Assembly (NCBI RefSeq): GCF_000372725.1
Contig: NW_005202427.1
Coordinates: 1,214,459 to 1,278,458 of the forward strand
Source: Emiliania huxleyi CCMP1516
Lineage: Eukaryota
Reading direction: 5' to 3'
DNA: 64,000 nucleotides
In this document: positions 1 to 63,509 of the stretch, piece after piece
Layout: each line of letters opens with the position of its first letter
Numbering within the stretch: the stretch's first letter is position 1
Made by a program: the position numbers and the translations under genes
Notes under the pieces: generated by a model
Databases searched by the model: none
The model's input: the letters and a program-made list of their open reading frames with translations, nothing else
Told to the model about the DNA's origin: nothing

Positions 1-2736
1 GCGCTACTTCGGCTCCTTCGTGCAGCGTGTGCTCGACGAGCCGCTGGACGTTCGGCTGCACTACGGCCACCCCGCCCTGCTCGACAAGCTGCACTTCTTC
101 TGGGAACCGTCTTGGAACCTTCTTGGCACATTCTAGGCCACCCCGACCTGCTCGACAAGCTGCACTTCGCCACGCGCGGCGGGGTGAGCAAGGCGTCCAA
201 GGAGATCAACTTGAGCGAGGACATCTTTAGCGGGTACAAGACGGTGCTCGCCGGCGGCTGCGTCGTCTTTCGCGAGTACCACCTCGTGGGCAAGGGGCGG
301 CCCACAAACCTGATGGAGATCACCGGCTTCTTCGCGAAGCTCTCCTCCGGCTCCGCCGCGTCGCTCACGACGCGCGACGTGGCGCGCTTCGCCGCCAGCG
401 CGCCGCTCGTGAAGCTCTTCTCGTACTACTACTCGGCCATCGCCTTTTACGTGCACGACGTGATCGTGATGCACGTGACGGTGCCTCGCCCCGCGCCTGT
501 CCCTCGCCCCGTGCCCGCGCGCGCGAGGGATGGATGGCGAGCACCGCACTCCTCATTGCGGATGGCCGAGCAGGTCCTCATCCCCTACCTGCTCGCGATG
601 CTCGCGCTCGTCGGCCTCGATCACCGCTTCAACAACTACGAGGCGCAGCCCCTCTCGCTCTTCGCCCTGCTCCCGCTGCTGCTCTCGCTCATGACGGCCC
701 TCCCGCTCTTGCGTGTCTGTAACGACTGCCCATCCTCTTCATCACGTGCTTCCCCGTCGTAGGCCGTGCCCGCGCTCTGCATGGTGCTGGTTGAGAGAGG
801 GCCTCGCCGGGCCCTCTCCTTCTTGCTTGGGATGGCCATCACCGCCTCGCCCGTCTACTTCATCTTTGTCGCGCAGACAAAGTCCTTCCACTTTGCGCGC
901 ACCGTCACGGCGGGCGGCAGTTCATTAGCAGCTAATTCGTAGCTTATTTAGTAGCTGATTCGTAGCTTCGTAGTAGCTTATTAGTAGCTTATCAATCACC
1001 ACAGGCGGGCGGCGCGTCCTACTTCGCCGCGCGGCGGAACGCCTCAGTGCTTCACACGCCCTACCACGAGCTGCACGCGCGCTTTGCGCACTCGCACCTC
1101 TACGTCGCCGCCGACGTGTACGTCTTTCTCTGCATGGCGCACGTCTGGTCCGTCTCGGACCGGCTCTTCCTCACGACGTGGCCCACTTGGGCGGTGGCTT
1201 CGTGCTTCGTCCTCGCGCCGCTGCTGTACAACCCGCAGCAGCTCGAGGCGTGGCAGGTCAAGGCGGACGTGCGCGGCTTCTGCGGCTGGGTGACGGGCGG
1301 AGGCTGGGAGGAGTGGTACGCGCGGCTGCACGGGCCGCCCGCGCGCGGGGGCATGGCCGCCGAGGACGCGGCGTGGAACGAGCAGTTCGGACGCGTCTCT
1401 GTCGCGGCGTTTTACTCGTTCATCGCCTACCTCATCCCGCTCCAGACCAATGTCGACAACTTCGCCGCCACGCGGGGGTGGGTGTGCGAGCCGCGCCTCG
1501 TCTGCACGGGCGCAACCTACCTCGCCTCGCTCGTCGCCCTCGCCGCCGCCGACTTGCGCCCCCACCGCTCGGCGCGCGCGCCGTCGAGCCGCCGCCGCCG
1601 CGCCTGCTACGTCGCGGCCGCCACCCTCTGTGCGGCCGCCACCCTGCAGCTCGCGGCGGCGTGCGCCGTTTTGGGGCCGGCGAGCAGCGCCGCTGGAAAG
1701 GCCCTCTGCGCGCCCGACTGCCGTTTGCGGAGGCGCCTCGCTGGCCTGTAGGCCGGCCTCGCTCGCACCGCCTCGCTGCGCAAGCGGCTGTGCGTCGCCG
1801 CCCTGTGCGTCTACGCTTGCGCAGGCGCTGTCGGGTCGGTGCTGGAGACGTCCGCCAATGCGCCCTCTCTGTCTGAACCTCTTTTGAACCCTTCTCCGAG
1901 CCTTGGATAGGTGCTCGAGCTCGCTGCCAACATGCGGGCGACGGCGGACGTCGCCGCGCCGCTGCTGAGGCTCGCCCACAAGGCGCGCGAGAGCGTGGAG
2001 AGACACGCCCTCCCGCGGACACTTCCTACACACTTCATAAGACACGCCCTCCCGCGGACACTTCCTACACACTTCATAAGACACGCCCTCCCGCGGACAC
2101 TTCCTACACACTTCATAAGACACGCCCTCCCGCGGACACTTCCTACACACTTCATAAGACACGCCCTCCCGCGGACACTTCCTACACACTTCATAAGACA
2201 CGCCCTCCCGCGGACACTTCCTACACACTTCATAAGACACGCCCTCCCGCGGACACTTCCTACACACTTCATAAGACACGCCCTCCCGCGGACACTTCCT
2301 ACACACTTCATAAGACACGCCCTCCCGCGGACACTTCCTACACACTTCATAAGACACGCCCTCCCGCGGACACTTCCTACACACTTCATAAGACACGCCC
2401 TCCCGCGGCTGCTCCGCCTCGCCCAGCAAGGCCACCTATGTATATTTATATACCTGGCGCCTCAGGCGCGTGATTATGCCCTCGCCGCCGCGGTCCTGCT
2501 GCCGGTTGGCGCCCTCGCTGCGCTGCGGCTGCCGGGCGTGGTGCACCGGGCGCTCATCTTTCAGCGCTCGTTTGTCGACCTCGACATGCGCCGGCGCAGT
2601 AGTGTTTCCTGCCCCGGGCGCCCCCGCTTGTTTACCCTCCGTGCTCACTACGGGTAGGCACGGGCTCATCCTGTACTCCTCCGTCCTCGCTGCGGTCGCC
2701 CTCGCATACGCGCTCTCCTCGCTGGATTGGGGCTGA
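1..2736 (+). CDS. 1,3-beta-glucan/callose synthase (GT48, FKS-like), 5'-partial, multi-exon
   Basis: Spliced translation RLHYGHPDLLDKLHFATRGGVSKASKEINLSEDIFSGY...EYHLVGKGR...FFAKLSSG is the GT48 catalytic signature, followed by multiple TM segments. Inferred introns include 66-136, 910-1004, 1839-1910 and 1983-2465; stop at 2734-2736. Confidence 0.9.
2001..2408 (+). repeat. 39-bp tandem repeat (~10 copies) inside a glucan synthase intron
   Basis: Unit agacacgccctcccgcggacacttcctacacacttcata repeated essentially perfectly. It lies in the inferred GC-AG intron 1983-2465. Confidence 0.95.
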
Positions 2737-7879: not shown

Positions 7880-7965
7880 AAGAAAGAAAGAAAGAAAGAC
7901 AAACCACGGGAGGGATGGGAGGGAGGACGGCACGCCGCCACCACCAGGGATTTTAAGTTGGGAGA
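7880..7965 (-). mobile_element. 5'-truncated retroposon 'family B' 3' end with (TTTC)n tail and 11-bp target-site duplication
   Basis: Core gggagggatgggag..gacggcacgccgccaccac..agggattttaag shared with 7 other loci. Flanked by gttggtgtcca at 7869-7879 and 7966-7976. An uninterrupted homologous site occurs at ~22066-22095. Confidence 0.75.
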
Positions 7966-8630: not shown

Positions 8631-9115
8631 ATATATCAGTGCCTATGCTTATAGCCACTAAAAGCTCGTTTCTGCAACTCGGTCCAGCCCGAGCCAGGCT
8701 GTTGTTGCTTGTTCGCCGTACTTACTTAGGTCTTAGCCACTGGCATGGTAGTAGATTAAGTTAGGTCCAGCCCGCGCCTCGCAACCACGGCATGGTAGAT
8801 AGCACACATGCGCGAACAAAAACTTTAGCTCCCCACCCCTCGATGGCGCGAGTTGCATCGGCCATCGCGCGCCTCCCCGCCCGCCTCGGCCCAGTTTCGT
8901 CGCGCTCGCGGCTCCGAAGTCCGCATGTGAGCGATGTGTGTGTCTATCTTTGTGTGTGTGCGTAGGAACGCTACCCTACGCTCTCAACCGGTTTCTCGGC
9001 TTTTCAAACGCTACACTGCGGTTGCGCGGCACGGTGTGTTGCAACACACACACGTACAGCTCTTCTCATCACTTTACCATCTCACTCACGCGCCGCTGCG
9101 TCCACAAGTGCCAAA

Positions 9116-11416
9116 TCATCTCGCCTGCCCTTCATCCGTAAATGAAAAGGGCAAGTCCTCCTCCTCCTCCCCACCGCCCTCCGTCGCCGGAGCGCTCGCC
9201 CCCTCCATCAGCCGGCCCAGCTCCGCCTGCCACGCCTGCATCACATGGCCTGGCAGCGCGCCAGCAAGCATGCCTGCGTGCACAGCCGCGCCCAACGCCA
9301 CCGCCTCCATCGGCGCCACCGTCCTGCGCGGGTCGATGCCAAACAAGTTGGCGACCAGCTTGCGCACCGCCGCCATCTGCGTGGCACCCCCCACCAGGAC
9401 CACCTCCGCGAGCGGCTCCCCTCGCGGGAGGTAGGTTCGCTTGCCGCTCGGCAGGAGCGCCTACGCGGCGGGGGACCATCTTGACAATCCACCTGTGTCA
9501 CAACTGCAGGTGTGAAGAGACGCTGTTCACGCCTACGCGGCGGGGACCAGGCTCCCTCACGCCCCCCGCAGCCCCAGAGGGCCCAGCCCGCTCTGCCAGG
9601 GCACGCCTCCGCCGCGCGCCTCGCCTTCGCCGTCCGCTTCTTTGCTGGCGACGACGGCGCCGCCTGCGCGAGGGTTGCCTCGGACGTGCGACCCAAACGG
9701 AGGGCTCCGGCCACCCTCGCGCAAGCCGGGAGGGCGGGGGCATGCGCGCCTCCCCTGGCAGCGACACTGCGGCAGCGAGCGCAACCTCGTAAAGAGGCGC
9801 CTTGAGCCGCTGCAGCAGCGGCTCGCACGCAGCCTCCATCGCGTCGCGGGTCAGCTCGATCGAGGTGCCTTCGCCGCCCTCGCCGCCGCCCTCACGGTCG
9901 CCCGTCGCCGGCGACTGCGGCGACGGGAAGAGGACCGAGACGCGCTTGACGACCGAGAGCTTGCGCTTCGCCGCCTAGACCCGAGTATGATTGATGAATA
10001 TGTCATGTTTTTGGTGGTATTGTCACAGCTTGCGGCTTGGCCGCCTCGGCGCGCTCGCGCAGAGTGCGCAGCGCGGCCTCGTCGTGGTCGATGGCGGGGA
10101 GGGCGAGCCTCCGCCCCTGGGCCGCGAGGGGGGGGGGGGAGGGGGGGTTAGAGGGAGACGGAAGGCGGCGAGGGGGAGGACTGCGGCTGGGCCCGCGCTG
10201 CTCTGTCGTGCGCTGCTCTGTCGTGCGGAGCCGGCGGGAGAGTGCTCCCCGGCCCCGGTCCTCCTAGTGGTGGAAGAGAGGTCCTCGCCCCCGCAGGCCC
10301 CGCCCCGCCCCCGCAGGCCCCGCCCCGCCCCCGCAGGCCCCGGCAGCACCTCCGCGAGGAGGAGCGCGACGATGGCGGCGTCGAAGTCTGTCCCGCCGAG
10401 GAGCGGGTCCCCCGAGGTGGCGAGCACCTCGGGTTAGGGTTAGGGACAGGGTGAGGGGGAGGGGGAGGGACAGGGTGGGGGTTAGGCCGAGGAGCGGGTC
10501 CCCCGAGGTGGCGAGCACCTCGGGCGAGGCCGCCGAAGCGAGGCCAGGGGCGTGCTGTCAGGCGTGTGCAGCGGCCAGAGCGGCGGCGGTGCGGCGCGGA
10601 TGGGCGGCGGTGAGGCCCGGCCCAGGGCGTGTGGCGCACCTCGACGGCCTAGAAGGCTCCTAGAAGGCTCCTAGAAGGCTCCAGGGCGTGTGGCGCACCT
10701 CGACGGCGCCCTCGTCGCCGAGCCGCAGCACAGACACGTCGTAGGTTCCGGCGCCTAGAGGGCTCCTAGAAGGCTCCTAGAAGGCTCCGGCGCACAGACG
10801 CGTCGTAGGTTCCGGCGCCGAGGTCGAGGACGAGCACCTTGCCGACCGCCCCGCCGAGGCCGTAGGCGAGCGATGCGGCGACCGGCTCCGCGAGCAGCGA
10901 GACCGAGCCGAGCCCGGCGAGCCGGGCCGCTGCGAGCGTCGCCTGCCTCTGAGGCGCGTCGAAGTAGGCGGGCACGGTCACGACTGCGCGGCAGATCTCG
11001 CTCGCCGGGACGTCGAGCGCCCCGAGCAGCTCGGCCAGCACGCACGCGCCGGCCTCCTCCGGACTCAGATCGCCCACCGCAGGAAGCCGAAACATGGCGG
11101 CGCCCTCCTCGTCGCCGACCACCGTATACTGCGCACGTGCAATCTCGGCCTTGCACTGGCGCACGGTCCGCCCAATGAAGCGCTTGGCCGCCACCACCGT
11201 GTTGCGCACGTTCTGGCTGGCCTGAAGGTCGGCGGCCGCGCCCACCAGCACGGTGCCGTCGCCGGTGAAGGCGACGGTGGAAGGTGTCAGCGGCTCGCCG
11301 CGCGCGTTCGGGAGCAGCGACGGCTCGCCGCCTCGCAACAGCGCTATGGCCGAGTTGGTGGTGCCAAGGTCGATGCCGACGAGCAGGCCAGTGGCGAGGC
11401 AGGACGCGAGCAACAT
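9116..11416 (-). CDS. Hsp70-family protein, nucleotide-binding domain only, multi-exon
   Basis: GIDLGTTNS, TVPAYF, LAEPVAASLAYG, DLGAGTYDVSVL, ATSGDPLLGGTDFD, VLVGGATQM, EAVALGAAVHA; stop follows shortly after. Confidence 0.9.
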
Positions 11417-11656: not shown

Positions 11657-13766
11657 ATGCACCCACAGATGTTGCGAGCGGCACGTCCTGTGAGCCGCGT
11701 GTGGCTCCGCAGCCTCCGCCCGGCGCAGCTTACCCTGCGGCACGGATACGCTGCCGGCGGCGGAAGCGGCGGCGGAAGCGGCGGCGGCGTTAGCGGTGGC
11801 GGTGGCGGCGGTCTCGATGGCGGCGGCTTCACAGACATTCGCTCTGATATGTGGCTGTCTGCCCGCATGCCGGCGTGGCTGGTCCCGTACGGCGAGCTTG
11901 CGCGCTGGGATCGCCCGATCGGGACGTGGCTGTTGCTCTGGCCCTGCCTTTGGTCGATAGCGCTCGCGGCGCCGGCCGGCACGCCGCCAGACCCGCTGCT
12001 GTGCAGTCTGTTTGCGGCGGGCGCGGTGGCCATGCGCGGCGCCGGCTGCACGGTCAACGACCTGTGGGACCGCGACTTTGACCGGCGTGTCGAGCGAACG
12101 CGCCACCGACCCCTCGCACGCGGCGCGCTCCAGCCGTCGCAGGCGCTCTGTCCTCTTGCCTCCGTTGGCCAAGAGAGAGGCGGCGGGAAGGGTCACGCCA
12201 GCGCTGCGCCTCCAGGCGATCGGCTTCCTGGGCGCGCAGCTCAGCGTCGCGCTGGGCGTGCTTCTCGCGCTGCCGTTGCCTGCGGTTGCGGCGGGGCTGG
12301 CTAGCACGCCTCTATGGGTGCTCTACCCTCTCGCCAAGCGGGTCACGGACTGGCCTCAGGCAGCCGAGATGCCCAGCGCACGCTCGGGGCGGCAGAGAGA
12401 CTCGAGGTTGTCCCCCGCTCGCAGGCGGTGCTCGGTGCTGCCATCAACTATGGCGCCTTGCTGCGTGCGGGCGCGGCATGGGCTGGTCGGAGGCGTGAGG
12501 GTGGGCGGGGTGTGTGAGCAGGCGGACTGCTCGGCTGGGTGGCGGTGCGCGGCGACGTCGACTGGGCGGTGGTGGTGAGAGAGGGCGAGGGTCCGTCTCC
12601 CGCCCCGCCTTAGCCCTCCGCCCGCAACCCCCCCCCCCCTTTGGCGCAATAGGCTCCTCTGTACGGCGGCGCCTGGCTCTGGACGCTGCACTACGACACC
12701 GTCTACGCGCACCAAGCACGCACCCGCCCTCGCCCGCCCTCCCCACCCCGCCCTCCCTTGCCCGCCCGTCTTTCGCCCCTGCCTTCTCCCTCGCCGCCGC
12801 CCTCCTCCGCCGCCCCTCCGCAGCCGCCCCTCCGCCGCCGCCCGGCTAGGCGCGCCTCGCCCATCGCCCGGCTAGGCGCGCCTCTCCCACCGCCCGCCCG
12901 CATCCGCCACAGGACAGGAGGGACGACGCCGCAGCCGGCGTCCGGTCGACAGCGCTCCGACTAGGCGAGCCGCAGCCGAGATGCAGCCGAGATGCAGCCG
13001 AGATGCAGCCGAGGTGCAGCCGAGGTGCAGCCCGGATGCAGCCGAGGTGCAGCCGAGATGCAGCCGAGGTGCAGCCGAGATGCAGCCGAGGTGCAGCCGA
13101 GGTGCAGCCGAGATGCAGCCGAGATGCAGCCGAGATGCAGCCGAGGTGCAGCCGAGAGGTGTGGCTCCGGAGCGAGCGACGAGACCCCTCACGCCCTCCT
13201 CCCCGCCTAACGCCAAGGCGACAGCACCCTCCCGGCGCTCACCCTCTTCTCGACCGGCGCTATCGGAGGGCTCGCTGGCGCCGGCGCAGGCGCAGGCCTT
13301 GGCGCCGCAGGCAGTCCCGGCGGCTACGTCTACTTTTGCGGCCTCGCCGCCGCGGGCGGGCATCTCGTCTGGCAGCTGCGCACCGTGCGGCTCGACTCGC
13401 CGCCAGACTGCCTGCGCATCTTCCAGTCGAACCGAGACTTTGGCGCGCGCCCTGCAAGCGCCGCGCTCGCGCGCCTAGCTCGCCGCTCCACCCTCGAGGA
13501 GCAAAGTAGGAGCACTCGTCTTCGGCGCCATCGTCGCGGCGCAGCTGCTGCGCGGTGCAGGAGAGGAGGGGGGCAAGGGCGAAACCGCCGAGGGCGTTGG
13601 CGCTGAGGGCGACGCAGAGAATGCAGACAGGCGTGGCAGCCGCGCAAGGGAGAGGCACCTGACAGGTTTTGACGTGTTGAGATCTCTCTGGTGCGGAGAG
13701 GCCGACATTGCGAGCCGGGTTCGGCGTGCAGTTGGGTTCGCGGCCGAGAGAGGGGGTGAGAGCTGA
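11657..13766 (+). CDS. COQ2: 4-hydroxybenzoate polyprenyltransferase (UbiA family), mitochondrial, multi-exon
   Basis: Arg-rich transit peptide; ARWDRPIGTWLLLWPC, MRGAGCTVNDLWDRDFDRRVERTRHRPLARG, YPLAKRVTDWPQ, WTLHYDTVYAHQDRRDD, FQSNRDFG. 3' end approximate. Confidence 0.93.
12972..13157 (+). repeat. 11-bp tandem repeat (GCAGCCGAGRT)n in COQ2 intron
   Basis: ~16 copies of gcagccgagat/gcagccgaggt within inferred intron ~12965-13217. Confidence 0.92.
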
Positions 13767-15631: not shown

Positions 15632-16262
15632 TGTGAAGAATTCTTAAAATAGAACACTGGCACGACAAGGGCGCGGACTGGCAAACACACATTGCTAAAA
15701 ATCTCTCTCTCTCGGACTGGCGCGGACTGGCACTCACACACATCTCTCTCTCTCTCTCACACAGCCGGCACGCTACTCGAGTAAGAATTTTACAACAAAA
15801 CTCCCTCAGTGGTGTACCTGTGTTAGTGCAGTGCGCGCCAGTCCCGTGATTGATTGATGGGAAAGCGAAACACAGTCCGACCAACGACTGGGACACAGTC
15901 CCTTGCCCAGTGTTGTGCGAGTAAGAATTCTTAAGATACAAGCCTCTCTCACAGCACACTGGCACGACAAGGGCGCGGACTGGCGCGGACTGGCACACAC
16001 ACAGGCTCACCACCGGAGCCGCCTAAGCGACTCCGTTAAGAACGGCAATGCACTCCGCACCATGCACAATGCCGCTCTCCCCGCACGCTAGCTCGTTCAC
16101 CGTCTGCCACGCCACGGCGGTGTGGAGGACGACAGACAAGCGCTGCATCTGCAGCCCGTGCCAGTTCTTGGTGGTCCATGTGACCTCGTCCAGGTGCTGA
16201 GCGTGCGAAAGTTTGTTGCTCAGCTGGTTCGCCGCCTCCCTCAGGGTGCTGCGAACCTCCTT
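15632..16262 (-). mobile_element. stack of 5'-truncated non-LTR retrotransposon 'family A' 3' ends
   Basis: 15924-16262 is the reverse complement of ~19517-19855 with no difference I could see, flanked by tgcgagta (15916-15923, 16263-16270). Further 3'-UTR fragments (gccagtccgcgcc..., ending taagaattctt/taaaattctt) lie at 15632-15920. Confidence 0.8.
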
Positions 16263-19039: not shown

Positions 19040-19855
19040 CTACTCAAACGTTTGATCAAATGCCTCCGCTCGGCGTGGGGCATGATCATCGAGATGGAGC
19101 CGACTGCACACCTCAGTTACAGTAATCCAAAACAACCTGACGTGGCGGCGGCAAACATCGGCAGGGGGCACAGGCGCCTTGTTGCCGATTTGAAGCTCAC
19201 GAGCTCGCTTGCGAGCCAGGGCAAGGACACGGCCGGCGACGGAGAGCTCGGCTGGAAGGGGGCCTATGTGCGTTTTGGCAACACGGAGACCGGGCTGCTC
19301 AAGTTGGTCAAAGGGCGCGGCAAGTGGTCTCCGTCGGGAGCGACGGCAGCGGCGGTGGCGGGGGAGGAGGAGGAGGCCGAGGAGGAGGGGGAGGAGGGGG
19401 AGGAGGAGGATGCCCCCAAGGGAAAGCTCAAGGAGCTGCCTGGCGATTACCCCTTTGCGCGGCAGCAGGATTGCGATCTACGTTTGTTTGATTTTGAGGC
19501 TTTCGGAGGCTTTGGAAAGGAGGTTCGCAGCACCCTGAGGGAGGCGGCGAACCAGCTGAGCAACAAACTTTCGCACGCTCAGCACCTGGACGAGGTCACA
19601 TGGACCACCAAGAACTGGCACGGGCTGCAGATGCAGCGCTTGTCTGTCGTCCTCCACACCGCCGTGGCGTGGCAGACGGTGAACGAGCTAGCGTGCGGGG
19701 AGAGCGGCATTGTGCATGGTGCGGAGTGCATTGCCGTTCTTAACGGAGTCGCTTAGGCGGCTCCGGTGGTGAGCCTGTGTGTGTGCCAGTCCGCGCCAGT
19801 CCGCGCCCTTGTCGTGCCAGTGTGCTGTGAGAGAGGCTTGTATCTTAAGAATTCT
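19040..19855 (+). mobile_element. 5'-truncated non-LTR retrotransposon 'family A' (CRE-like restriction-like endonuclease C-terminus + 3' UTR)
   Basis: ORF tail EMEP...KQPDV...VADLK...GDY...FEAFGGFGKEV...W...QRLSVVLH (stop 19756) has the PD-(D/E)xK layout of REL-type retroelements. No RT region is present. Other copies lie in the window. Confidence 0.7.
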
Positions 19856-21464: not shown

Positions 21465-21680
21465 AGAAAGAAAACGGACAGGACCCCAGGGAGGGATATG
21501 GGAGGACGGCACGCCGCCACCACACAGGGATTTTAAGGAGAGGGGAGCACAGAAAGAAAGAAAGAAAACGGACAAGCCAAGGGAGGGATGGGAGGACGGC
21601 ACGCCGCCACCACACAGGGATTTTAAGGAGAGGGGTGTGGTGCGCTAGCCGTCGCCCACCCTTGGGCGTCCGCCTCTTCC
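21465..21680 (-). mobile_element. two tandem 'family B' retroposon 3' ends
   Basis: Two copies of (gaaa)n...gggagggatgggaggacggcacgccgccaccacacagggattttaaggagagg. Confidence 0.8.
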
Positions 21681-40287: not shown

Positions 40288-40358
40288 ATATATATATTTG
40301 CGGCGGCGGAACGCGAGACAGCCTGGCTGCGGAAAGAATTTTACCACCCGACGCTGGA

Positions 40359-41322: not shown

Positions 41323-41406
41323 ATTTTTTGCGCCTAACACGCTCATGTGGAGCGCCGGCCTTTCGCTGTTGTTGTTAGTTGTCCTCCGAGGTGTTGAGCC
41401 AGCGTC

Positions 41407-44400
41407 ATGACTGCGGCCCTGTTCGCTCTCCTCCTCCTTCCAGCGCTCAACGACGACGCTGACCCTCGCACCCTCGTCCGCTGGGCCTCGTCGCGCTGCG
41501 AGCCGGCCGTAAGCGGCTCGTGCGGCCGCGAGCCGCACGGCTACTGCGACGCGTCGGTCGGCCGGTGCGTCTGCTCGCCCGGCCGCTTCGGTCCGCGGTG
41601 CGAGCAGATGCACTACCCGGCCTGCCGGCTGCACCCCGACGGCGAGATGGCGTGCGACACCTTTGTCGGCCTCATGTCCTGCGCGTGCCGCCTCTCGTGC
41701 GAGCAGAGGTACGGCTCGATGGCGCGGTTCAACACGCCTCTCTGCTGGGACGAGTCCGTGTCGGACGAGGAGCTCAGCCGCCGGTCGCTGCAAGCCGACG
41801 GCGGCCGCTCTCCAGCGACCCTCCGCACCCACACACTCCCCACCCTCCCCGACGCAAGCGGCCGCGCCTCGCTATCCCAGGCGCCCTCACCGCCCTCTCG
41901 CTGGTCAACACGTCCGACTTCCCGGCGGCGAGCGCGAGCATCGTCTTCCGCACCGACCAGTGGCCGCTGCGCGGCCGCTGCGCGCGGAAGAACATCGCGC
42001 CTGCCAAGCTCGCCGCCTGCACCTCGCGCACGGCCGTTGGCCACAACAAGGCGACGAGGCAGCGAGGAGAGGGGGGGGCGCCTCCGCTCTCCCCGCGGAC
42101 GCCGCCCGTCGCCGCGCCTCAGGCGAGGAACATGCTCGGCGGCGACCCCGTCCCCAACTGGCGCTGCCCCGGCTCCTGCTCCCACCGCGGCACGTGCCTC
42201 GTCCCCGCCGCCTAGACACTTCTGGGGCCTTCTAGGAACCGTCCAGGAACCTTCTAGGCACGTGCCTCGTCCCCGCCGCCTAGACACTTCTGGGGCCTTC
42301 TAGGAACCGTCCAGGAACCTTCTAGGCACGTGCCTCGTCCCCGCCGCCTAGACACTTCTGGGGCCTTCTAGGAACCGTCTAGGAACCTTCTAGGCACGTG
42401 CCTCGTCCCCGCCGCCGTCCGCTCGGAGCACGCGCGGGAGCAGTACCCGCTGCAGGGCGAGCGCGCCGGCGAGGCCCTGCCCCCGCCTCCGTGTGCGCGT
42501 GGGCGTGTGCCCTCACGCCTGCCGCACCGAGCAGGCGAGATTACCCGAGATTACCCGAGATTGCCCTCACGCCTGCCGCACCGAGCAGGCGAGCCGAGCT
42601 GCGTCTGCCACCGCGGGTATGTCGGCCGCGCCTGCGAGGCTGTCAGCCCGTCCGAGGAGCGCGTGCGCCTCGCGGCAACGCCGCCTGCCGACGCCGCGTC
42701 CGTGACGCGACCGTGAGTCGTGTCCACAGGAGCCGTTCGGCGCGTCGAAGTACGGCTCGCTCTGCCTCAACGGCCGAGGCTGCTCCGGCCACGGCGCGTG
42801 CGTCGCCCGCTTCTGCCTCTGCCACGCCGGTTGGGCGGGCGCAGACTGCTCGCTCCCAAACGCTCCGAGCCGGCCGCTGGCGCCGCCCGCCGCCCTGCCG
42901 AGCGCGCAGCCGATTGGCGGGCGGCGCGTGCCCATCTACATCTACCCGCTGCCGACCGAGATGTCGCTCGAGCACGTCTACATGCGCGACATGCTGCGGC
43001 GAGGCCAGTACTACGCCAACCTCATGTTCCTCGAGGTGACGCGTCCTCCTGCCCAACCTCCTGCCCAACTCGCCATCGCATGTCNNNNNNNNNNNNNNNN
43101 NNNNNNNNNNNNNNNNNNNNNNNNNNNNNNNNNNNNNNNNNNNNNNNNNNNNNNNNNNNNNNNNNNNNNNNNNNNNNNNNNNNNCCCCCAGTCCCTCCCC
43201 CAGTCCCTCCGCCAGCCCCTCCGCCAGTCCCTCCGCCGCGGAGCGGGCGGTGCCGCGCCCACACCCAACCGCCCGCCCCGCAGGCGCTGCTCCGCGACAA
43301 GGCCTCCGTCGTGGCAGACCCGGAGCAGGCGCGAGGCCGGCCTCGGCCCAGCGCCCGCCCGCTGCTCGCCCAGGCCGGCAGCTGCCTCGCCCGCAGGCGG
43401 CCCTCTTCTTCGTGCCGGTGATGCCGATGCAGATGGCGGGCAACTTGTGGCACCCATACGAGTTCCTCGCGCAGACCGCGCGCCACCTCGCGAGCGAGTA
43501 TCCCTTCTGGCGCCGCTCCGGCGGGCGAGCGACCAGCCCTTCCTCGCACGCCGAGTGAGGAGGGGATCAACAACTCACGGCATGTCAATCCATTGGTAGT
43601 CGCGACCACATCTTCTTCCTCACGACGGACCGCGCCGGCTGCTGGAAGCCATTCGAGCTCAACCAGTCCATTGTGCTCACCTACCTCGGCTTCTCTGCGC
43701 CGGAGGCCAACTCTGGCTGCGAGGAGCGGCTGGCTAACCCTCGCCCCGACCCTGGCCCTGACCCTGACCCCTAGGCCAACTTTGGCTTCGAGGAGCGGCT
43801 GCGCTGGGGCGCAAACCCGTCGGGGCCGGAGCGGCGCAACAACGCGTACGACACGCGCGAGGGGTCGGTCGCCACCACGCTGCCCTGCTACGTGCCTGGC
43901 CAGGACATCGTCGCTAGCCCCACCCCTGAGCCATAGCCCATACCCAAAACCCTAACCCGAACCCTAACCCTGACCCTGACCCTGACCCTGACCCTGACCC
44001 TGACCCTGACCCTGACCCTGACCCTGACCCTGCTACTTGCCTGGCCAGGACGTCGTCGTGCCCGTCGACACCGAGGTGAAGGCCGCCGACCAGGCAAAGT
44101 CGCCGCGGCCGGGCGCTCCGTACCAGTGCGCGGGCCGGGCGGGCAAGCTGAAGCTGCTGCACATGGGCGGCTCGATGCAGAACATGGGGCGGATCGAGTA
44201 CTCGCAGGGCGTGCGGCAGCGCATCGCCGAGCTGCACAGCGACGAGCCAGACTTCGTGCTCGGCGGCACCTTCACGCTGGACGACCTGCGCGCCGCCACC
44301 TTTTGCCTCGCGCCGTCGGGCTGGGGCTGGGGCTGGCGCATCACGCTCACCCTGCTGACGCAGTGTGTGCCCGTCATCATCCAGCCGAACGTGACGCAGC

Positions 44401-44810
44401 CGTTCGAGGAGCTGCTGCCGTACGAGGACTTCTCGCTGCGCCTCACCAAGGAGGACATCCCGGCGCTCCCCAAGCTGCTGCGCGCCGTGCCGGACGCGAC
44501 CATCTGCCGGATGCAGACCAGCCTCGCCAAGCACTACCGCGCGCTGCTCTGGCAGAAGCCGCACGGGCCGCAGCACCCGAGCGCCTACGACCTGACGATG
44601 ATCGCGCTCTGCCGGCGAGAGCTTCGCCCCACCACCCCGCCGCTTCCGGCCTCCTGGCACCTCACACCCCCTCCCCTCCTCGCACGCAGGCGGGCCAAGA
44701 GCTTGGCAGTCAGGCTGTCCAGATCCCCCGATACGGCGCGCGCATACCTGGCACGTCACACGCCAGAATGCGCCGATACGCTCGAGGCGGCGGGCGTCGC
44801 GTTCACCTGA
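41407..44810 (+). CDS. secreted/Golgi EGF-like + exostosin (GT47) glycosyltransferase, many exons, spans a gap
   Basis: Signal peptide; EGF-like CxCxxGxxGxxC repeats; PIYIYPLP, VADPEQA.LFFVP, YPFWRRSGGRDHIFFLTTDRAGC, DVVVP, FCLAPSGWGWG.R, CVPVIIQ...QPFEELLPY. Confidence 0.9.
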
Positions 44811-45589
44811 CAGCAGCTGTGATTTGTATAATAATATGTGCGGCAGACAAGGCAGACTCTATACTTTTACAACTTTTGGAATATCTTTTCTTCGTGCGGA
44901 GAGAGAGAGAGAGAGAGCAGGTGTGCTTCTTAGCCCCCCCGGCCCTGGCGGATGTGCGGTTGATGACTGCACTCCAAAGTCCATTTGTCCCATCTCCAAC
45001 GCGTCCAAGTGTGTCCGCTCCAAGTGCAGAGAGGACAGAAGAGCCTTTTCCCGCCCTCCTAGACCTCTCTCGGTTGCCTCTATTCCCGCCCTCCCACTCC
45101 TCTCTTGCATTATTTTTCTTGGTGTCGCGCGGCGGCGGGTGTGGTGTTTCTGCTTTCTCTATGAAACACATAGTCTATGTCTCTCTTCACTCTCTCCTTG
45201 ACCGCGACAGGACTTGAGTCTTGTCGATGTCCGTTCACCGTTGTCCCCCGACTTTGAAGTTAGATTGAAAACAAATGGGCCCTACGCGCGAGATTGATTC
45301 TGAGACCCAACCCCTGGATAGTGGACAGCGGGCCCAGCCCCCAGCGCCCGGCGGGCCGGGAGGCGCAGCATGTGCATGTCAGCCATCGCGCCCATCGGGC
45401 CCATGCCGCATGCGATCGGCATGCAGCGCCCAGAGGCGCGGAGAGCGCGGTCGCTCTCTCACACATTCGCCCTCGCTCCCTCCCTCCTCCCTCTCCCCTC
45501 TCTCTCAGGCGCCTGGGGGACGTCGCCCTCCGACCGGCATCGACCTTCTCCCTGAGATGTGAGAACCTCAGAGACAAAGCGATCGCGGC

Positions 45590-46269
45590 TCAGCTGGTCT
45601 TCTTCTTCTCGTCCGAACCCATGCCCAACATGCACCACCCAGCCACCAGACACACACCTCCAAGAGGAGTGACAGGCCTGTCAGTCAGCGGAAACAGCTG
45701 AGGAGAGTGATCAGGAGAGTCTATTGTTACTCCAGAGGATGCAGACCCCAAGAGCCTCGGGGCGCCGAGCGCGAGGGAGTAGATGCTGCCTGAGCATGAA
45801 AGGAGGGAGGGTTGGACGTCGCCACCCTCGCTCTACCGACCAGACCGATCGATTGATTGCCCGAGAAGAGGACGGAGCCGCCGGTCCACAGACAGGCCAC
45901 GAGGTAGTACGGTGTGCCTCCCGCGCTGCCTTGCATTCGAGAGCTCACCGCAAGCAAGGCGACCGCGTGCAAAAGCTGATAGACGCACGCAGTCCGCCAT
46001 GACTGCAAAGCACCTCGAGCCTCCAGTGAGCCATGTAGAGCATGGGCGCCTGATTCGAAATCACCAAACCTGCACGGGGGCCACTCTCTCTATATGCCGC
46101 CACACGGCCACACGGACGGCACACCTAACGCCCCTGCAGCGATGGCGCTCGCTCCCAGCGCAGCAGCGCAGCGCCGAACCGTGGTGGCTGCCGCGGCTTC
46201 GGCGGCAGCCACGCCCGCAGGATTCCGACTGCTCGCCTGTTGCACAATAGGCGGCACTGCGGGCAACAT
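45590..46269 (-). CDS. TMEM256: TMEM256/DUF423 family membrane protein, 4 exons
   Basis: Spliced: LGASAIAAGALG|AHAL...WRTACVYQLLHAVALL...GSVLFSG|SIYSLAL...LG|PVTPLGGVCLVAGW. Start codon uncertain. Confidence 0.85.
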
Positions 46270-46720
46270 GGATCGAGGCCCAGCGCCTTGGCCGTGAGTT
46301 GCGGTCTCACCGATGTGGAATAGCGCCGCACTGCGTCGCGTATGCGGTTGGGAATGAAATCGACGTACGCGCCGACCGCAGTGCCGTCGTCGCGGAACGC
46401 ATACGGTGGCGGCGATGCCGAGCCTCCGTCGACAACGGGCATTGTATTGCTCACGGGATGGACGTCCATCCCAACTTGTTTTCTTCTTTAAACCTTGAAA
46501 ACAGGCGGATCCAGTGCCTAGCTCGCCGCCCAGGCACGAACCGGCCAGGGCCGGTGTGACGACGCAGAGCCGAGTGCCCCTTCACGGCGGGCCGTCTTCG
46601 CACCCACCTCGCGAGCCGACATACTGGATTTTGCAAAAGCGAGGGGGGGAGGGGGGGCATGCGGCAGTCAGTTATGAAAATTAAATCCCCAAAATTCTTT
46701 TTGCTAGAACGGCGGTGATC

Positions 46721-47262
46721 ATGCTGTGTGGAGTCTCGCCTCGCCTGCCTCGCACGATCCTCCTCCTCCTCCTCCTCCTGCACGGATCGCCCGCTGCGGC
46801 CCTCTTCGTCGGACCCCGCGTGCCCGGCGCGCCGCTGCGGGCGGCGCCCCCAGTGTTTGCTCCGCTGACGCTGCTGCGCTCCACGCCCGCTGCCGCCGCC
46901 GCAGCGCTTGTCGCGGGCACCGCCTCGTCCGCGTCCGCGGCGGCGGAGAGCGGTGCGATCGCGAATCAGTTGGACGACAGGCTTGTCGTCGGCTTCGTGC
47001 TAGTGCGCGCCCCTGCCCACACCTTCACAGCCGCGCGTTCCTTTTATGCGCTTGCTCCCACCGTCTCTCCTTCCCCATTCCGCGCGTTCCTCTCACATCT
47101 CTGCGCCGCCGCCGCCCCCAGGTTCTTCTCGTCGCCACGGCCGCGCTCCAGTTCTCCCTCGGGGATGTGGCTGCGGACGAGGCCAACTTGCCCTCCTCGA
47201 GCGCCCGCATCAACGACCTGCGGCAGAAGCGGTCAAACTTCCTGCGCGGCCCTCCGCAGTGA
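46721..47262 (+). CDS. small hypothetical, probably plastid-targeted membrane protein, 2 exons
   Basis: Signal peptide + ALF motif + Ala-rich segment; TM helix LVVGFVL|VLLVATAALQFSLGDVAADEA. Confidence 0.6.
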
Positions 47263-47552
47263 GAGGGAGCCTTGGGCATGCTGGCGTTGCGTCTCGTGAT
47301 GTGCGCGCGGGTGGAATGGCTGCCGCTGGGACCACCGACCGCGGTTCCTGGTCTTCGTTTTAGATGGCCCCTCCGTGTGAGCATCTTCCACCCTGCGCAA
47401 AACCAAAGGTGTAGAGGAAAGGGGAGAAGAGGTAGGCGCAGATAAAAAGAAATTGCCCCGCCACGTGCTAGTGTGCGGGCGAGGTGTGCAGCTGCATTTG
47501 CGCGCGCCCGACCCGCAGCAGCTGGAGGCCCTCACCGCGAGTGCTTGTCGCG

Positions 47553-49990
47553 ATGGCCGACGCCGAGGCCGACAAGCGCGCAGAGGCCGAGATTGAAATC
47601 TGGAAGGTCAAGAAGCTCGTCAAGAACCTCGAGGCGGCACGCGGGTGCGCAGCGCCGACGCCCTGCCGCGATAGCCTGGGCGGGATGCACTGCGCCGCGT
47701 GGCGAGGAGGAGACCGGGCGGCCACGGATCAGCTCCGCCCTCACCGGGCCTCGCTCGCAGGAACGGCACGTCGATGATCTCGCTGATTCTGCCGCCGGGC
47801 AGCCAGATCTCTCAGGCGTCCAAGATGCTTGCCGAGGAGTACGGCACGGCGTCCAACATCAAGTCGCGCGTGAATCGCCTCTCCGTCCTCTCGGCCATCA
47901 CCTCGACCCAGCAGCGGCTCAAGCTCTTCTCCAAGGTTCCTCCGAACGGTCTCGTCATCTACTGCGGCACGATCCTGACCGACGAAAACAAGGAGCGGAA
48001 GGTCAACATCGACTTCGAGCCCTTCAAGCCGATCAACACGTCCCTGTACCTGTGCGACAACAAGTTCCACACCGAGGCGCTGCAGGAGCTCCTCATGTCG
48101 GACGACAAGTTCGGGTTCATCATCATGGACGGTCCGGCCCCGACACCGCTCCCTCCGCCTGACACACGGCCTCACACACAACCTCACACACCACCGCCGC
48201 AACGCCGCCCCGCGACGGCGCCGCCCCGCCCGCCGCCCTTGACCGCTCCTCGTCCGGTGCCCGAGCGGGCGGACGCCGCCGCCAGCCCACCCCCTCGCCC
48301 CTCTGCCGGCAGGTAACGGCTGCTTGTACGGCACTCTGGCGGGCAACCACCGAGAGGTGATCCACAAGTTCTCGGTCGACCTGCCGAAGAAGCACGGCCG
48401 CGGCGGCCAGTCGGCGCTGCGCTTCGCGCGGCTGCGGCTCGAGAAGCGTCAAAACTACGTGACCAAGTGCGCCGAGATGGCGACGCAGATGTTCATCACC
48501 AACGACAAGTGCAACGTGTCTGGGCTGGTGCTGGCCGGCTCGGCAGACTTCAAGGTGGTGCTCTCCGAGTCGGACAAGTTCGACCAGCGGCTCGCGGCAA
48601 AGGCAGCCCGCGCCCTCCCCACCCTCCCCACCCTCCCCTACCTCCCCACCCTCCCCGCCCTCACCACCACTCCCAANNNNNNNNNNNNNNNNNNNNNNNN
48701 NNNNNNNNNNNNNNNNNNNNNNNNNNNNNNNNNNNNNNNNNNNNNNNNNNNNNNNNNNNNNNNNNNNNNNNNNNNNCGCCTCCCCCGGCCCGCGCCACCT
48801 GTCGGCCCGCCTCCCTCTGCCGCCTCCCTCTACCGCCTCCCTCTGCCGCCTCCCTCTGCCGCCTCCCTCTGCCGCCTACCTCTGCCGCCTCCCTCTGCCG
48901 CCTCCCTCTGCCGCCTCCCTCTGCCGCCTCCCTCTGCCGCCTACCTCTGCCGCCTCCCTCTGCCGCCTCCCTCTGCCGCGAAGGTGCTCAAGACGGTGGA
49001 CGTGTCGTACGGCGGAGAGAACGGCTTCAACCAGGCGCGAGCTGGGCAGTCGCGAGGTAGTCGAGGGGTGAGGAGGCACTCCCTACAGAGAGGGCACAGG
49101 CGGGTTGAGTTCCCAGCCGTGCGCAGATAGCCGTGCAGACGGGGGGCGGCGCGGTCGCGGCATGCTGCCGCGGTGAGGCGTTCCTTCGTTTGTGCGGGCA
49201 GGCGATTGAGCTGTCGGCCGAGACGCTGGGCAACGTCAAGTTCGTGCAGGAGAAGAAGCTCATCTCGCAGTACTTTGAGCAGATCTCGCAGGACACGGGC
49301 AAGTTTTGCTTTGGGATCGACGACACGCTCAAGGGGCTCGAGATGGGCGCCGTGCAGATCCTCATCGTGTGGGAGAACCTTCAGGAAGGCCAGGAACCTT
49401 CTAGGAACCTTCTAGGCGCCGTGCAGATCCTCATCGTGTGGGAGAACCTGGCGACCTTGCGGTACACGCTCAAGGACGCAAACAGTGGCGCGCGGCGGCC
49501 TCGCGCCCCTCCCCCCGCAAGCCGCGCGCCCGTCACCCCGCCGCCGCCGCTCGCGTGCAGGGGAGGAGGAGGTGAGGCACATGTCGCCCGAGCAGGAGGC
49601 CGACAAGTCCAACTTCGTCTCCAAGGCACCGCCCGCTCGGTGCCCTCCCGCCCGCCACACCTCGCTCTGACGGGCCGCCTAGCATTCGCCGCGCAGGAGG
49701 GCGCCGACCTCGAGGTGGTCGACAAGGTGCAGCTGGTCGAGTGGTTCGCGTCCAACTACAAAAACTTTGGCGCGACGCTCGAGTTTGTGACAAACCGCTC
49801 GCAAGAGGGCGCGCCGCCCGCCGCCGCCCTGCGCCGCCCCTCTCCAGCGCGGGGGGCGCGGCCTGACGCAGCCCTCTCCCGCCCCGCGACAGGCTCGCAG
49901 TTTGTCAAGGGGTTTGGCGGGGTGGGAGGCATCCTCCGGTACAAGGTCGATTTCATGGAGCACGACTACGACAACGACGACTCGGACTAG
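47553..49990 (+). CDS. ETF1: eukaryotic peptide chain release factor 1 (eRF1), 9 exons, gap in an intron
   Basis: [82 protein letters not shown]. Confidence 0.98.
48808..48978 (+). repeat. 13-bp tandem repeat (CGCCTCCCTCTGC)n in eRF1 intron
   Basis: ~13 copies directly before the acceptor at ~48983. Confidence 0.9.
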
Positions 49991-50651
49991 CCGCTCCGCG
50001 CGGGGAGCCACCGGGGAGCCACCGCCGCCGGACCGGCCGCGGAGGGGGACGGGGCCGCGTCCCGCCAACGGCAGCCGCGCCCGCCGTTCGCACGCCACCG
50101 GGCGGTTCCGGGACGCGGGAGCCGCGTGCCTCGACCCCTCCGACGGCGTGATGGCGCGGTCTTCGGAGAAGATTCATTGTATCTATAATCTATAATCTGT
50201 GGTGTGTCGACCCCCTCGCTGCGCATGTCCCGGGAGACTACGTGTTGTGGCGTCCAGAAGAACGTTCACATGAAAAAATTACTCCCGTATGCCATACCGT
50301 GTGTGTAGTGTGTGTGTGGTTGCTTTGAGCCCCCACCATCACACGCCTCTGCGGCGTGCGGGTTGCGCGCCGCGCCGCAAGAGCTCCAAGGCGCGCTCGG
50401 GGCCCGGCTCTGACCGAGCCGGTAGAGAGCAGCACACGCGCCGTCTCAATACGCCAGTCGACACCCACCCCCTGCGCGTCCCCGCCGGCGCGCCGGCTCG
50501 ATAACGATACACCAGAGCCCGCCACGGCGTGGCGTCGCCGCCATCCAGCCGCGTCACCCCCCCGCCGCGCCATCCGAGGCCCGAGAGCCCTCCAGAGGCG
50601 TCCTTTACGGGGCTGGGAGGCCCGAGATGATCGACGCCTCCAGCCGACGCA

Positions 50652-61282: not shown

Positions 61283-63509
61283 ATGATGCAGCCGGGCTTC
61301 GCGCGCGGCTGTGCCTCTGGCGCCGGGCTCGCCACGGCCTGCGCGCTCGTCCTGGCCTTCCTCGCGTGGCGACAGCTGCCCGCCCAGCCCGGCCAAACCG
61401 GCGGCTCGTGGGGCTCGAATGGCATCAGCGAATCGTCGTCGGGTGCACTCTTCCGCGCCGTAAAGGTGCGTTCGTACCAGGGTCCGCGGCGCTTCGCGGA
61501 CTGGCGGCCGAGGCCGGATGCCAAGAAGGGAGCGCCGTCAAAGGAGTGCAGGCAGTGGGCGGTGGTCACCTCGATCTTCCCGCCGACACAGACGGTGCGG
61601 CAGCTCGCCGCTCTACCATCGTGGTGCGTGGTCGTGGCGGGCGACAAGAAGGGCCCCGTCGAGTACAACCTCTCTGGCGTCCTCTACCTGACGCCAGCCA
61701 TGCAGGCAGCTTGGACCTCCTCCCTGCGGCTTGGATCTCCTCCCTGCGGCGCTGGCCTCGCTTCGCGCCCCCCGCTCCACGGCTCGCCCCGCGCACCGCT
61801 GCCCAGCCCGCCTTCTCTCGGCTTGGCAGGAGGCGCTCCCCTTCGAGTCCAAGGCGGAGCTGCGCTGGAACCACTTTGGCCGCAAGAACCTCGGCTTCCT
61901 CTATGCGATCCAGCACGGCGCCCGCTGGGTGTACGACACCGACGACGACAACGAGCTCCTCTTCCCGGGCCCGCGCGCGATCCCGATCCCGCCGCCCGAC
62001 GCGCTCGCCGACGAGGTGTACACGTCCGCGCGCCTCTACAACCTCTACCACCACCTCGCCGTCCTCCCGGGCAAGGCGCGCAGCCCACCACACACCGCCA
62101 CGCCCACACACCGCCACGCCACCACACACCGCCACGCCCACACGCCACCACACACCGCGCTCCACCATCACACCGCACGCCACCATCGCACCACCGCTGC
62201 ACCCAGCCGCCTGCACCCCGGATCCCCGCCGCCCCCCCCCCCGAGCCCGGCGCGCCTCTAACGCCCGAGATTACCCGAGATTACCCGAGATTACCCGAGC
62301 CCGGCGCGCCTCTAACGCCCGGCCCTCGAGCCCGGCCCACCCGCGTCGCAGGCGCACCTCCCCTGGCGCACCTGGCCGCGCGGCTTCCCGCTCGAGTCCA
62401 TCAAGGACAACGCAACCACGTCCGCCGCCTTCCGCCGGCGCGCCCGGCCCTCGCGCCACATCCAAACCCTGGCCCTGACTCTTACCCTGCCCTGGCCAGA
62501 ACACCCTAGGCGCGCCTGGCCCTCGCGCCGCATCGGCGTCTTCCAGTCCCTCGCGAACCACGACCCCGACGTGGACGGAATCTACCGGCTCACCCAGGAC
62601 CTGCCCCTCTCCTTCAAGCCCTCCCTCGCCGGCACCGGAACCTCGTCCGCAGCGCTCGCAGGCCGGCCCCTCCCCTCTCCGTGGAGGCCCGGCGAGGCGG
62701 CGCCCGAGGCGGCGCGGCCTCCGCGCACCGGCCCCGCGCCGAGCCGGCAAGGCTCTGGCCGCTCGCTGGCCGAGCAGGGCGGGGGCGGCGGGCAGGGCGC
62801 GGTGGCGGCGGCCAGCAGGGGCGGTCGGCGGCTGAGCGGCGCGGAGGGGCGCGCCGCGCCGCCTCCGCTCCACAGTGCCGCCGCCGCCGCTGGCGGCGGC
62901 GGCGGCGGCGCGGCGCATGCGGCGAGGCCATCTGCAGCGCGGGCGGGCGGCGGCGCCTCCTCGCGCGCTATCACTCTGCGCGAGGGCAGCATGATGCCGT
63001 ACAACGCCCAGGCGACGCTGCACGCGCAGCGCGCCCTCTGGTCGCTCCTGCTCCCGTGCTCCGTGCACGGGCGGGTGACCGACATCTGGCGCGCCTACTT
63101 CGCGCAGCGGCTGCTCTGGGACGTCGGGCTGCGGCTCGCCTTCTCGCCGCCGTGGGTGGTCCAGTTCCGCAACGCGCACAACTACCTCGCCGACTTCAAC
63201 TCGGAGGTGCCTCTCTATCAGCAGGCGGGCGCGCTGGTCGGGGCGCTGCTCCGCTGGCAGCCGGCGGCGAGGACGCTGCCCGGCCGCTTCGAGGAGCTCT
63301 ACGTCCACATGTACGAGCTCGGCATCGTCGGCCTCTCCGACGTGCGGCTGGCCCAGGCTTGGCTCGCCGACCTCGACCGCATCGGCTACCCCTTCCCGCC
63401 GATCCTCGACCGGCCTCCGCGGGCGGTCAAGCCGGCGAGGAGCGGCGGGGTGCGAGAGAGGCATGGAGAGAGGAGGGCCGCGACGAGTGGCGCCGGCCAG
63501 GCTACGTAG
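61283..63509 (+). CDS. STELLO-like (DUF288) Golgi glycosyltransferase, multi-exon
   Basis: N-terminal TM; WAVVTSIFPPT, WCVVVAGDKKGP, WNHFGRKNLGFLYAIQHGARWVYDTDDDN, WPRGFPLE, QSLANHDPDVDGIYRLT, PYNAQAT, RVTDIWR.YFAQRLLW, QFRNAHNYLADF..E. Confidence 0.93.

Follow-up and report, generated by a model that had tools for sequence, protein, structure and literature searches.

Host genes and anatomy of the echo introns

The stretch of Emiliania huxleyi CCMP1516 DNA analysed here (64,000 nucleotides (nt) of contig NW_005202427.1, positions 1,214,459 to 1,278,458, hereafter the window) holds 13 intervals which a preliminary description had listed as introns whose 5' part copies the start of the next exon, the copy being followed by a simple-repeat linker, here termed the filler. 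These echo introns are borne out at exact coordinates: all 13 open with a copy of the first letters of the exon that follows, with GC..AG ends in 12 and GT..AG ends in one. A database protein listed under E. huxleyi CCMP1516 is 100% identical to an exon of the window. All statistics given below refer to this single 64-kb window, which was picked for the pattern, and none is genome-wide. The listed loci sit in eight genes rather than the seven first counted. Pfam names six of the hosts as glucan synthase, Hsp70, USP14, eRF1, STELLO and exostosin; of the other two, one gives weak CS and zinc-finger matches and one is unnamed.

The 1,3-beta-glucan (callose) synthase gene on the forward strand contains three of the introns, at 66–136 (GC-AG, 71 nt, 11-mer filler), at 910–1004 (95 nt, AT-rich 11-mer filler) and at 1839–1910 (GT-AG, 72 nt, decayed duplication and degenerate 11-mer filler). 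On the reverse strand lie the Hsp70 intron at 10755–10818 (64 nt), two introns with AG-free 11-mer fillers at 23241–23313 (73 nt) and 26309–26382 (74 nt, perfect duplication), and the three introns of USP14/Ubp6 at 38598–38657 (60 nt, duplication beginning with AG, AT-rich filler), 38717–38784 (68 nt, perfect duplication, 11-mer filler) and 39554–39620 (67 nt, two mismatches in the duplication, 11-mer filler). The remaining loci are on the forward strand. In the exostosin GT47 gene the interval 42190–42393, first taken as one locus, does carry the echo but consists of three tandem 68-nt units; it is followed by 43706–43774 (69 nt, duplication beginning with AG, telomere-like filler), by the eRF1 intron at 49347–49415 (69 nt, perfect duplication, 11-mer filler) and by the STELLO-family intron at 62438–62509 (72 nt, telomere-like filler). 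Measured by ungapped extension, with the shared G before the donor included, the duplications are in locus order 33, 10, 10, 28, 18, 22, 24, 24, 21, 24, 29, 35 and 26 nt long and hold 0–2 mismatches.

A foreign filler is present at all 13 loci. By itself the duplication would not reach the length of an intron; the filler supplies length and, at 11 of the 13, also the acceptor. The earlier statement that the linker ends in AG therefore stands for these 11 but not for 38598 and 43706, where the duplication begins with AG and both splice sites thus come from it. Two length patterns were noticed after the fact: five listed introns with a TAG-bearing 11-mer measure 64–69 nt, the preceding AG falling at 58 nt or less, and four with AG-free 11-mer units measure 71–74 nt. 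Phase counts (4, 7, 2) are no different from the supply of G|GY sites (p 0.28).

In anchored alignments of intron start and downstream exon start the 13 true pairs score 6–32, and none of 156 mismatched pairings exceeds 7.5; the scores of two loci, 7 at 910 and 6 at 1839, lie inside this null range, and their echoes are weak taken singly. An automatic scan of the window returns 23 echo sites, array copies counted, versus none in each of 20 triplet shuffles and 0–2 in 20 shuffles of 12-nt blocks. Excision of each of the 13 intervals gives back an open frame, and the Pfam profile positions continue across 910 (607 to 610).

Splicing and presence in independent DNA

RNA contigs from two studies display exact skips of 60, 68, 67 and 69 nt at 38598, 38717, 39554 and 49347, respectively, the 60-nt skip at 38598 being found in both X11 and X14. 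In this comparison the contigs of four runs (of 20) were set against 38216–50000, and the joints are the listed 15 of 97, among which 42190 and 43706 do not appear. The transcript-type protein P0044 equals the predicted spliced sequence over all three USP14 sites. The proposal that splicing restores the protein exactly agrees with RNA at four loci, with open frames at 13 and with profile continuity at 910.

Outside the reference, eight of the 13 loci are present (66, 910, 10755, 38598, 38717, 39554, 43706 and 49347), and some of the outside copies differ in filler or first copy. The introns at 38717 and 39554 are retained in DNA runs X1 and X7, and that at 43706 in DNA run X7. The intron at 66, whose filler is polymorphic, is read into by the ENA open reading frames (ORFs) P0002, P0025 and P0026, that at 910 by P0002 and P0026, and that at 10755 by P0101 (6 contigs) and P0128, while 39554 is held by P0106 on 15 contigs and 38598 is present in ORF(s) read from other contigs. 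An artefact of the reference assembly could be suspected from the gaps and long tandem arrays of the window and from three assemblies that lack the eRF1 echo intron; since independent DNA holds eight loci, with allelic differences in filler and first copy, this explanation is hardly credible. Two JGI ORFs without 39554 and 38717 that read into neighbouring introns, P0043 and P0112, were not taken as empty alleles, because P0113 reveals some partly spliced RNA in the JGI set.

The public CCMP1516 gene models P0001 and P0045 skip or mistranslate echo regions, and in P0001 an 11-mer filler has been translated further upstream. Echo introns give rise to annotation errors.

Apparent filled and empty forms of the eRF1 intron

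The echo intron of eRF1 is an apparent presence/absence polymorphism. It is skipped in DNA runs X1 and X7 while the neighbouring introns stay, and contig L001, which matches the window at 99–100% identity, retains four of the introns nearby and contains the 35-nt target in a single copy. The search query matched filled and empty forms equally; the empty form is represented by five read-through ORFs on 8 contigs and the filled form by P0139, which has a frameshift in the first copy. We regard the empty allele as probably real. The opposing reading is that it may be an assembler collapse of the 35-nt exact repeat: of the loci tested, eRF1 alone has an exact repeat longer than the 31-letter word used by the contig assembler, and outside the reference the filled form is known from a single record, P0139, whose repeat is broken. 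Duplications of at least 31 nt can make short-read assemblers delete such introns.

Downstream of eRF1, L001:1270–1561 carries sequence not found in the window, either a structural allele difference or a chimera. The unspliced 3' half of eRF1 (49109–49990) is open, with a 293-residue frame running through four introns to the true stop.

Comparison with relatives and intron gain

Outgroup ORFs were called straight from genomic contigs and were recognised by their reading into shared introns. Site 66 is crossed by six genomic ORFs (P0003, which clusters with Isochrysis galbana, P0004, P0005 and three more distant), and site 910 by P0004, P0027, P0006, P0007 and P0008. P0004 also runs across 1839, with a 24-residue gap in the alignment. 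In USP14, P0046–P0050 and P0054 run across 39554, P0049 clustering with I. galbana, and P0048 runs across both 38717, where the stretch is loosely conserved, and 38598. Listed sites with an outgroup other than eRF1 are thus empty in relatives at six of seven, the exception being 10755, and the empty sites expected in orthologues are found. Since the genomic ORFs of relatives are uninterrupted at these six, most of these introns are very likely gains. For eRF1, the best 80 loci have ancient introns in the vicinity of residues 30, 268 and 340, and residue 316 is free of introns in them; as a locus split at 316 would fall below the best 80, this lack is not counted as evidence.

Faded echoes extend beyond the listed loci. 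Two lineage-specific introns absent from the list, both GC-AG, carry decayed echoes: 697–762 on the forward strand (score 6, p 0.045; absent in P0004 and P0006) and 39396–39463 on the reverse strand (score 8, p 0.006; RNA skip of 68 nt; absent in P0046–P0049). Among 23 introns verified by RNA or homologues, the echo is higher in 12 that are absent from outgroups than in four that are shared (p 0.009). The five outgroup-absent introns that had not been listed reach a mean echo of 4.4 versus 1.8 (p ~0.002), whereas the four shared introns have no echo (mean 1.9 versus a null of 1.8). Taken together, the 15 unlisted verified introns give no significant echo (p 0.13), and only the outgroup-absent five show it. 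As judged from sequence, this points to decayed echoes as older rounds of the same process. The mirror class, in which the intron end copies the upstream exon, is not general, with one clear case in the 23 introns.

The Hsp70 site departs from this pattern and speaks against simple gain by DNA duplication. In the translations of the relatives P0102–P0104 the match breaks off immediately past the residues at which the 10755 duplication ends, and the first copy continues with similar residues. The translations imply an intron in the relatives that begins at the 3' end of the duplication or no more than 4 nt from it. The second copy at 10755 is without an outgroup-type intron, so that pure DNA duplication is insufficient unless the old intron was lost first. 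At 10755 an old intron may have moved upstream, or a new one may have been gained beside an intron that was lost.

Displacement of this kind might be supposed for all the loci, a break in an old intron being healed by mRNA-templated copying, with the intron shifting 20–35 nt upstream and taking up a repeat filler, and no net gain. Such remodelling suits 10755, where the relatives' intron apparently lies at the 3' end of the duplication, but at 66, 910, 1839, 38598, 38717 and 39554 the genomic ORFs of relatives continue through the duplicated stretch. In addition, five duplications of the wider event class described below hold intron letters, which mRNA could not template, and the four outgroup-shared introns lack an echo. 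The six sites empty in relatives exclude remodelling as a general rule, and overall we consider it unlikely. The preliminary description had named old introns at the same positions as the finding that would speak against insertion; this holds at none of the six sites, and at 10755 the duplication abuts an apparent outgroup intron. Its proposal, in which a repeat tract inserted between two copies of the target is kept as a GC-AG intron, is supported by splicing, by independent DNA and by empty relatives, 10755 being a possible exception.

A wider class of insertions and the splicing filter

Unbiased repeat scans followed by hand curation give 24 events of the form duplication, repeat filler, duplication, with duplications of 10–39 nt (median 26) and fillers of 20–115 nt. 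The filler is GGAACCTTCTA in 11 events, telomere-like in seven, GAGATTACCC in two, AT-rich in two and of other types in two. These counts leave out events at 8682 and 9458, which have non-repeat fillers, and one intron ending at 1751, which has an uncertain donor. Fifteen events are classed as exonic and nine, in a possible range of 9–11, lie inside introns or across old splice sites; five have grown into tandem arrays.

The intronic events are at 2001–2408 (forward strand; 18-nt duplication plus 21-nt filler, a 39-nt unit in 10.5 tandem copies), 23568–23646 (reverse; 26-nt duplication, 12-mer filler, 53-nt unit), 26068–26178 (reverse; 25-nt duplication, telomeric filler, 43-nt unit, 2.6 copies) and 62240–62321 (forward; 28-nt duplication, GAGATTACCC filler, 54-nt unit, microhomology of 4 and 6 nt). 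Old acceptors are spanned at 10395–10524 in Hsp70 (reverse; 39-nt duplication of 6 intron and 33 exon nt, telomere-like filler) and at 42508–42593 (forward; 32-nt duplication, GAGATTACCC filler, 54-nt unit, 4-nt microhomology). Old donors are spanned at 10622–10707 (reverse; 27-nt duplication of 9 exon and 18 intron nt, 11-mer filler, 59-nt unit), at 24313–25339 (reverse; 39-nt duplication, telomeric filler, a unit of ~76 nt in 13.5 tandem copies) and at 26195–26265 (reverse; 15-nt duplication, 56-nt unit), where the telomeric filler has the opposite, G-rich sense orientation. The event at 25496–25796 (reverse; TTAATA filler, 69-nt unit, 4.4 copies) is exonic or lies at an old acceptor and holds AG|GT within its 31-nt duplication. 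Similarly, at 43883–44058 (forward) AG|GA lies inside a 31-nt duplication with a 114-nt telomeric filler; a 145-nt GA-AG intron is predicted at 43904–44048, and RNA pieces begin at 44041.

The two groups of events differ in what splicing would require. Units under 59 nt are absent among the 15 exonic events and make up six of the nine non-exonic ones (p 0.0006), and an (A)G|G start is found in 13/15 versus 2/9 (p 0.003). When two doubtful events are shifted between classes the length and start contrasts hold, with p 0.003 and 0.00004. Over 14 spliced events duplication and filler lengths are strongly anti-correlated (rho -0.90), as a window of permitted intron lengths would give. Thus, the 5'-echo geometry is a splice-survival filter acting on a wider mutation class and not the mutation itself. 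The duplications at 10395, 10622, 26195, 42508 and 24313 include intron letters and were therefore copied from genomic DNA, not from mRNA.

The fillers themselves have no common body. Fifteen of them comprise several unrelated repeat types, with a longest common substring of 7 nt on average and 26 nt at most, the latter made of repeat units, and fillers within one gene are no more alike than those of different genes (6.7 versus 7.0 nt), which leaves local templating without support. Terminal inverted repeats are not seen: the best match is 2–6 of 8 positions in 14 of the 15 fillers and 8 of 8 only in the self-complementary AT tract of 38598. Outside the window, the 11-mer pattern gave no match in viral contigs and one unrelated match in prokaryote genomes. 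That the events descend from a degenerate family of introners, akin to miniature inverted-repeat transposable elements (MITEs), whose body has decayed to simple repeats is very unlikely. One 11-mer is common to 11/24 fillers, and a donor from the duplication with an acceptor from the insert is the geometry of introner classes 1, 4 and 5 in Symbiodinium and Polarella glacialis (bioRxiv 2020.10.14.339549; here, as for every paper cited below, statements refer to the portion of the text covered). The duplications of 10–39 nt, however, differ from the fixed 2–8 nt left by transposases, and the youngest-looking events have pure repeat fillers and no complex body.

The seven TTAGGG-like fillers among the 24 would fit telomerase-assisted healing of staggered breaks, as invoked for short interstitial telomeric sequences. 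Telomeres here are built of TTAGGG (bioRxiv 2024.05.26.595999), interstitial telomeric tracts are pervasive in Calcidiscus (PMC13518057), and telomeric insertions can duplicate their target and show in-register bases (PMC7215372). Against this, 17/24 fillers belong to five other repeat types, beyond the reach of one telomerase RNA, and the telomeric fillers are degenerate; in horse, plain duplication accompanies only 3/66 telomeric insertions, and the text covered gives no human one in an exon (PMC7215372). Telomerase is thus an improbable general agent.

The CCCTGA/CCCTAA filler of 43904–44048 offers many CTRAC motifs resembling branch points, a possible reason for the persistence of telomeric fillers with the C-rich strand as sense. 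At 12972–13157, close to where an intron begins, GCAGCCGAGAT is repeated 17 times, and one unit starts another intron of the same gene at 12360; it is a donor-side repeat family without a clear flanking duplication. The events with non-repeat fillers lie at 8682–8764 and 9458–9545 and have duplications of 15 and 16 nt, the former being GT..AG and outside annotated genes.

Proposed mechanism

We think it somewhat probable that a staggered break, repaired by priming on a repeat tract, makes insertions of the duplication–filler type, which in coding DNA are kept as introns. Opposite-strand nicks about 26 nt apart in a transcribed gene would leave 3' overhangs. A 3' end would then pair through a few bases with a repeat tract elsewhere (11-mer, telomeric or other) and copy 2–5 units, as the microhomology suggests, after which the ends would be joined and filled, duplicating the target. 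Exonic survivors would be those with a G|G[C/T] start, at least ~59 nt and a usable AG at the right end, in keeping with the class contrasts, and splicing would restore the mRNA exactly, as it does at the four loci with RNA junctions. The intronic copy and the filler would afterwards mutate so that the echo fades, a change seen between alleles at 66, 39554 and 49347 and presumed for the decayed cases. Unequal exchange between copies would build tandem arrays and could also precisely delete a young intron. Our best guess for the polymerase is a Pol-theta-like enzyme, or one acting as in synthesis-dependent strand annealing (SDSA), that copies genomic repeats. Because the spliceosome accepts GC donors, G|GC, which is common in GC-rich codons, can serve as the donor. 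Ancient eRF1 introns also use GC, so this tolerance is not confined to new introns.

In-register microhomology in the nine non-exonic events amounts to 26 nt versus 6.7 expected (p 0.0001), as priming would leave. Several other observations weigh against break repair. One event contributes 10 of these 26 nt, and at the 5' junctions of the 15 exonic events microhomology is 9 versus 5.9 expected (p 0.16). No filler was traced to a source tract. The tracts of the repeat families all fall within gene spans, which as approximated here take up 61% of the window. With one exception they read in the direction of transcription, TTAATA reading both ways; a genic, sense-biased placement is expected from RNA templates and not from random breaks. 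Furthermore, the event catalogue and its classes were hand-drawn from a single window, and RNA or outgroup comparison covers eight of the 13 listed loci (66, 910, 1839, 10755, 38598, 38717, 39554 and 49347).

The same genic and sense-biased tracts bring in a tentative alternative, which we hold to be possible but the less expected, in which the reverse transcriptase of a non-long-terminal-repeat (non-LTR) element cuts into a transcribed gene and takes as its template the 3' tail of an excised, repeat-bearing intron, or telomeric RNA. A long target duplication of variable size and a 5'-truncated filler would result, and with each new intron serving as a template the whole would amount to a self-propagating introner consisting of repeats alone. 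The inserts of non-LTR elements are short and truncated, with target duplications that are long and vary in size (PMC9977147); in the five listed introns with a TAG-type filler, the filler finishes in register on the AG; and several fragments of a very abundant element, anchored at its 3' end, lie in the window. Several non-exonic fillers, however, are without a terminal AG, one filler is reversed, and microhomology occurs on both sides; sense orientation among the non-exonic events is 5/6 (p 0.11). Neither Pfam nor the Atlas provides a label for the abundant element, and a search for elements ending in such repeats was negative. With the same reserve, one can conceive of a self-feeding, transposon-free intron factory, in which repeat-bearing intron tails and telomeric RNA are reverse-transcribed into staggered nicks of transcribed genes and each surviving GC-AG intron templates the next. 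If true, it would have built a large share of E. huxleyi introns, the 10–11-bp repeats within them and much of the GC-donor majority, and would still be running in natural populations. Repair by priming on genomic repeats remains the reading that we prefer.

Dispersed repeats in the window

Fragments of the very high-copy element lie at 16050–16260, 19400–19760, 28240–28450 and 40570–40900, with a depth above 100,000 in DNA runs. It has 531 relatives, mostly short and aligned at the C-terminus, and its motifs presumably resemble those at the restriction-like endonuclease end of non-LTR retrotransposons of the CRE type. The copies terminate close to AAGAATT motifs, a short way upstream of genes. 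A second, short dispersed repeat of ~60–90 nt near gene ends also has very high depth in DNA runs and occurs at window positions 7900–7960, 21490–21640, 27290–27370, 27770–27860, 30830–30880 and 40390–40440; it is possibly a non-autonomous mobile element.

Comparison with known systems

The origin of new spliceosomal introns is a long-open question, and to our knowledge transposon-derived introners are the only accepted route to mass intron gain. The events described here would be a second high-volume route legible in sequence. Every young event carries its own target duplication, so that insertion site, filler source, relative age (from copy mismatches) and the splicing filter can be measured genome-wide in the long-read genomes already available for Gephyrocapsa/Emiliania and Isochrysis. 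Introns of E. huxleyi are rich in short 10–11-bp repeats. The route would link these repeats to two further oddities of this globally important alga, its GC donors with intron retention and its high intron content. GC donors make up ~60% at its junctions, with heavy intron retention (PMC4028052), and its intron content is higher than that of other haptophytes (PMC8379373).

A full-text literature search, together with haptophyte genome papers queried for intron, splice and repeat, returned no description of this architecture, in line with the preliminary description; supplements lay outside the search, and absence from print is not established by it. The species is missing from the covered text of the pan-eukaryote introner survey, which filtered out low-complexity families (bioRxiv 2022.06.06.494994), and likewise from that of PMC12130899 and of the review PMC11282704. 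Direct repeats near splice sites in general have been treated elsewhere (PMC11782384). The earlier claim that the structure matches neither known mechanism holds for duplication length, repeat filler and density; it goes too far in that the geometry is known from Symbiodinium and Polarella introners and repeat-flanked gains from Daphnia.

In the introners of Symbiodinium and P. glacialis (classes 1, 4, 5, 6, 8 and 10) the 5' end of the duplication provides a donor that is often GC and the insert the acceptor, without any change to the mRNA; there are also classes in which the duplication contributes both splice sites (bioRxiv 2020.10.14.339549). A splice site recruited from the duplication with the mRNA unchanged is likewise found here. 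Those introners differ by fixed 3–8-nt duplications, homologous bodies and, in Symbiodinium, inverted ends, whereas the fillers of the window are unrelated and of low complexity. Membership among MITE-like introners was rejected, as there is no shared body, no fixed target duplication of 2–8 nt and no terminal inverted repeats.

Tandem genomic duplication at AG|GT (PMC3443670) is alike in that duplicated exon gives the splice sites, both lying inside the duplication at 38598, 43706, 25496 and 43883, and differs in having no foreign filler. Short interstitial telomeric sequences resemble the present events as one-step repeat insertions at breaks, sometimes with target duplication and in-register bases (PMC7215372). 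They differ in that duplication, found in 3/66 of them with no human exon case in the text covered, is here the rule, most fillers here are non-telomeric, and insertions into exons turn into introns. Non-LTR and Penelope-like insertions share long variable duplications and short 5'-truncated inserts (PMC9977147); no intron formation is reported in the text covered, and no parent with these repeat tails was found here.

A further likeness is to intron gain by break repair in Daphnia, where 33 cases among 90 gains carry 4–12 bp exon–intron repeats (PMC4202315) and where, as here, an inserted filler bounded by a direct repeat of the adjacent exon is read as the repair of a staggered break. In contrast to those 4–12 bp repeats and a filler origin that is mostly non-repetitive, the window displays duplications of 10–39 nt, recurrent repeat families and 13–15 cases in 64 kb. 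The echo introns are an unusually dense class of lineage-specific, spliced introns that works like break-repair gain, has the geometry of some introners and falls outside the introners.

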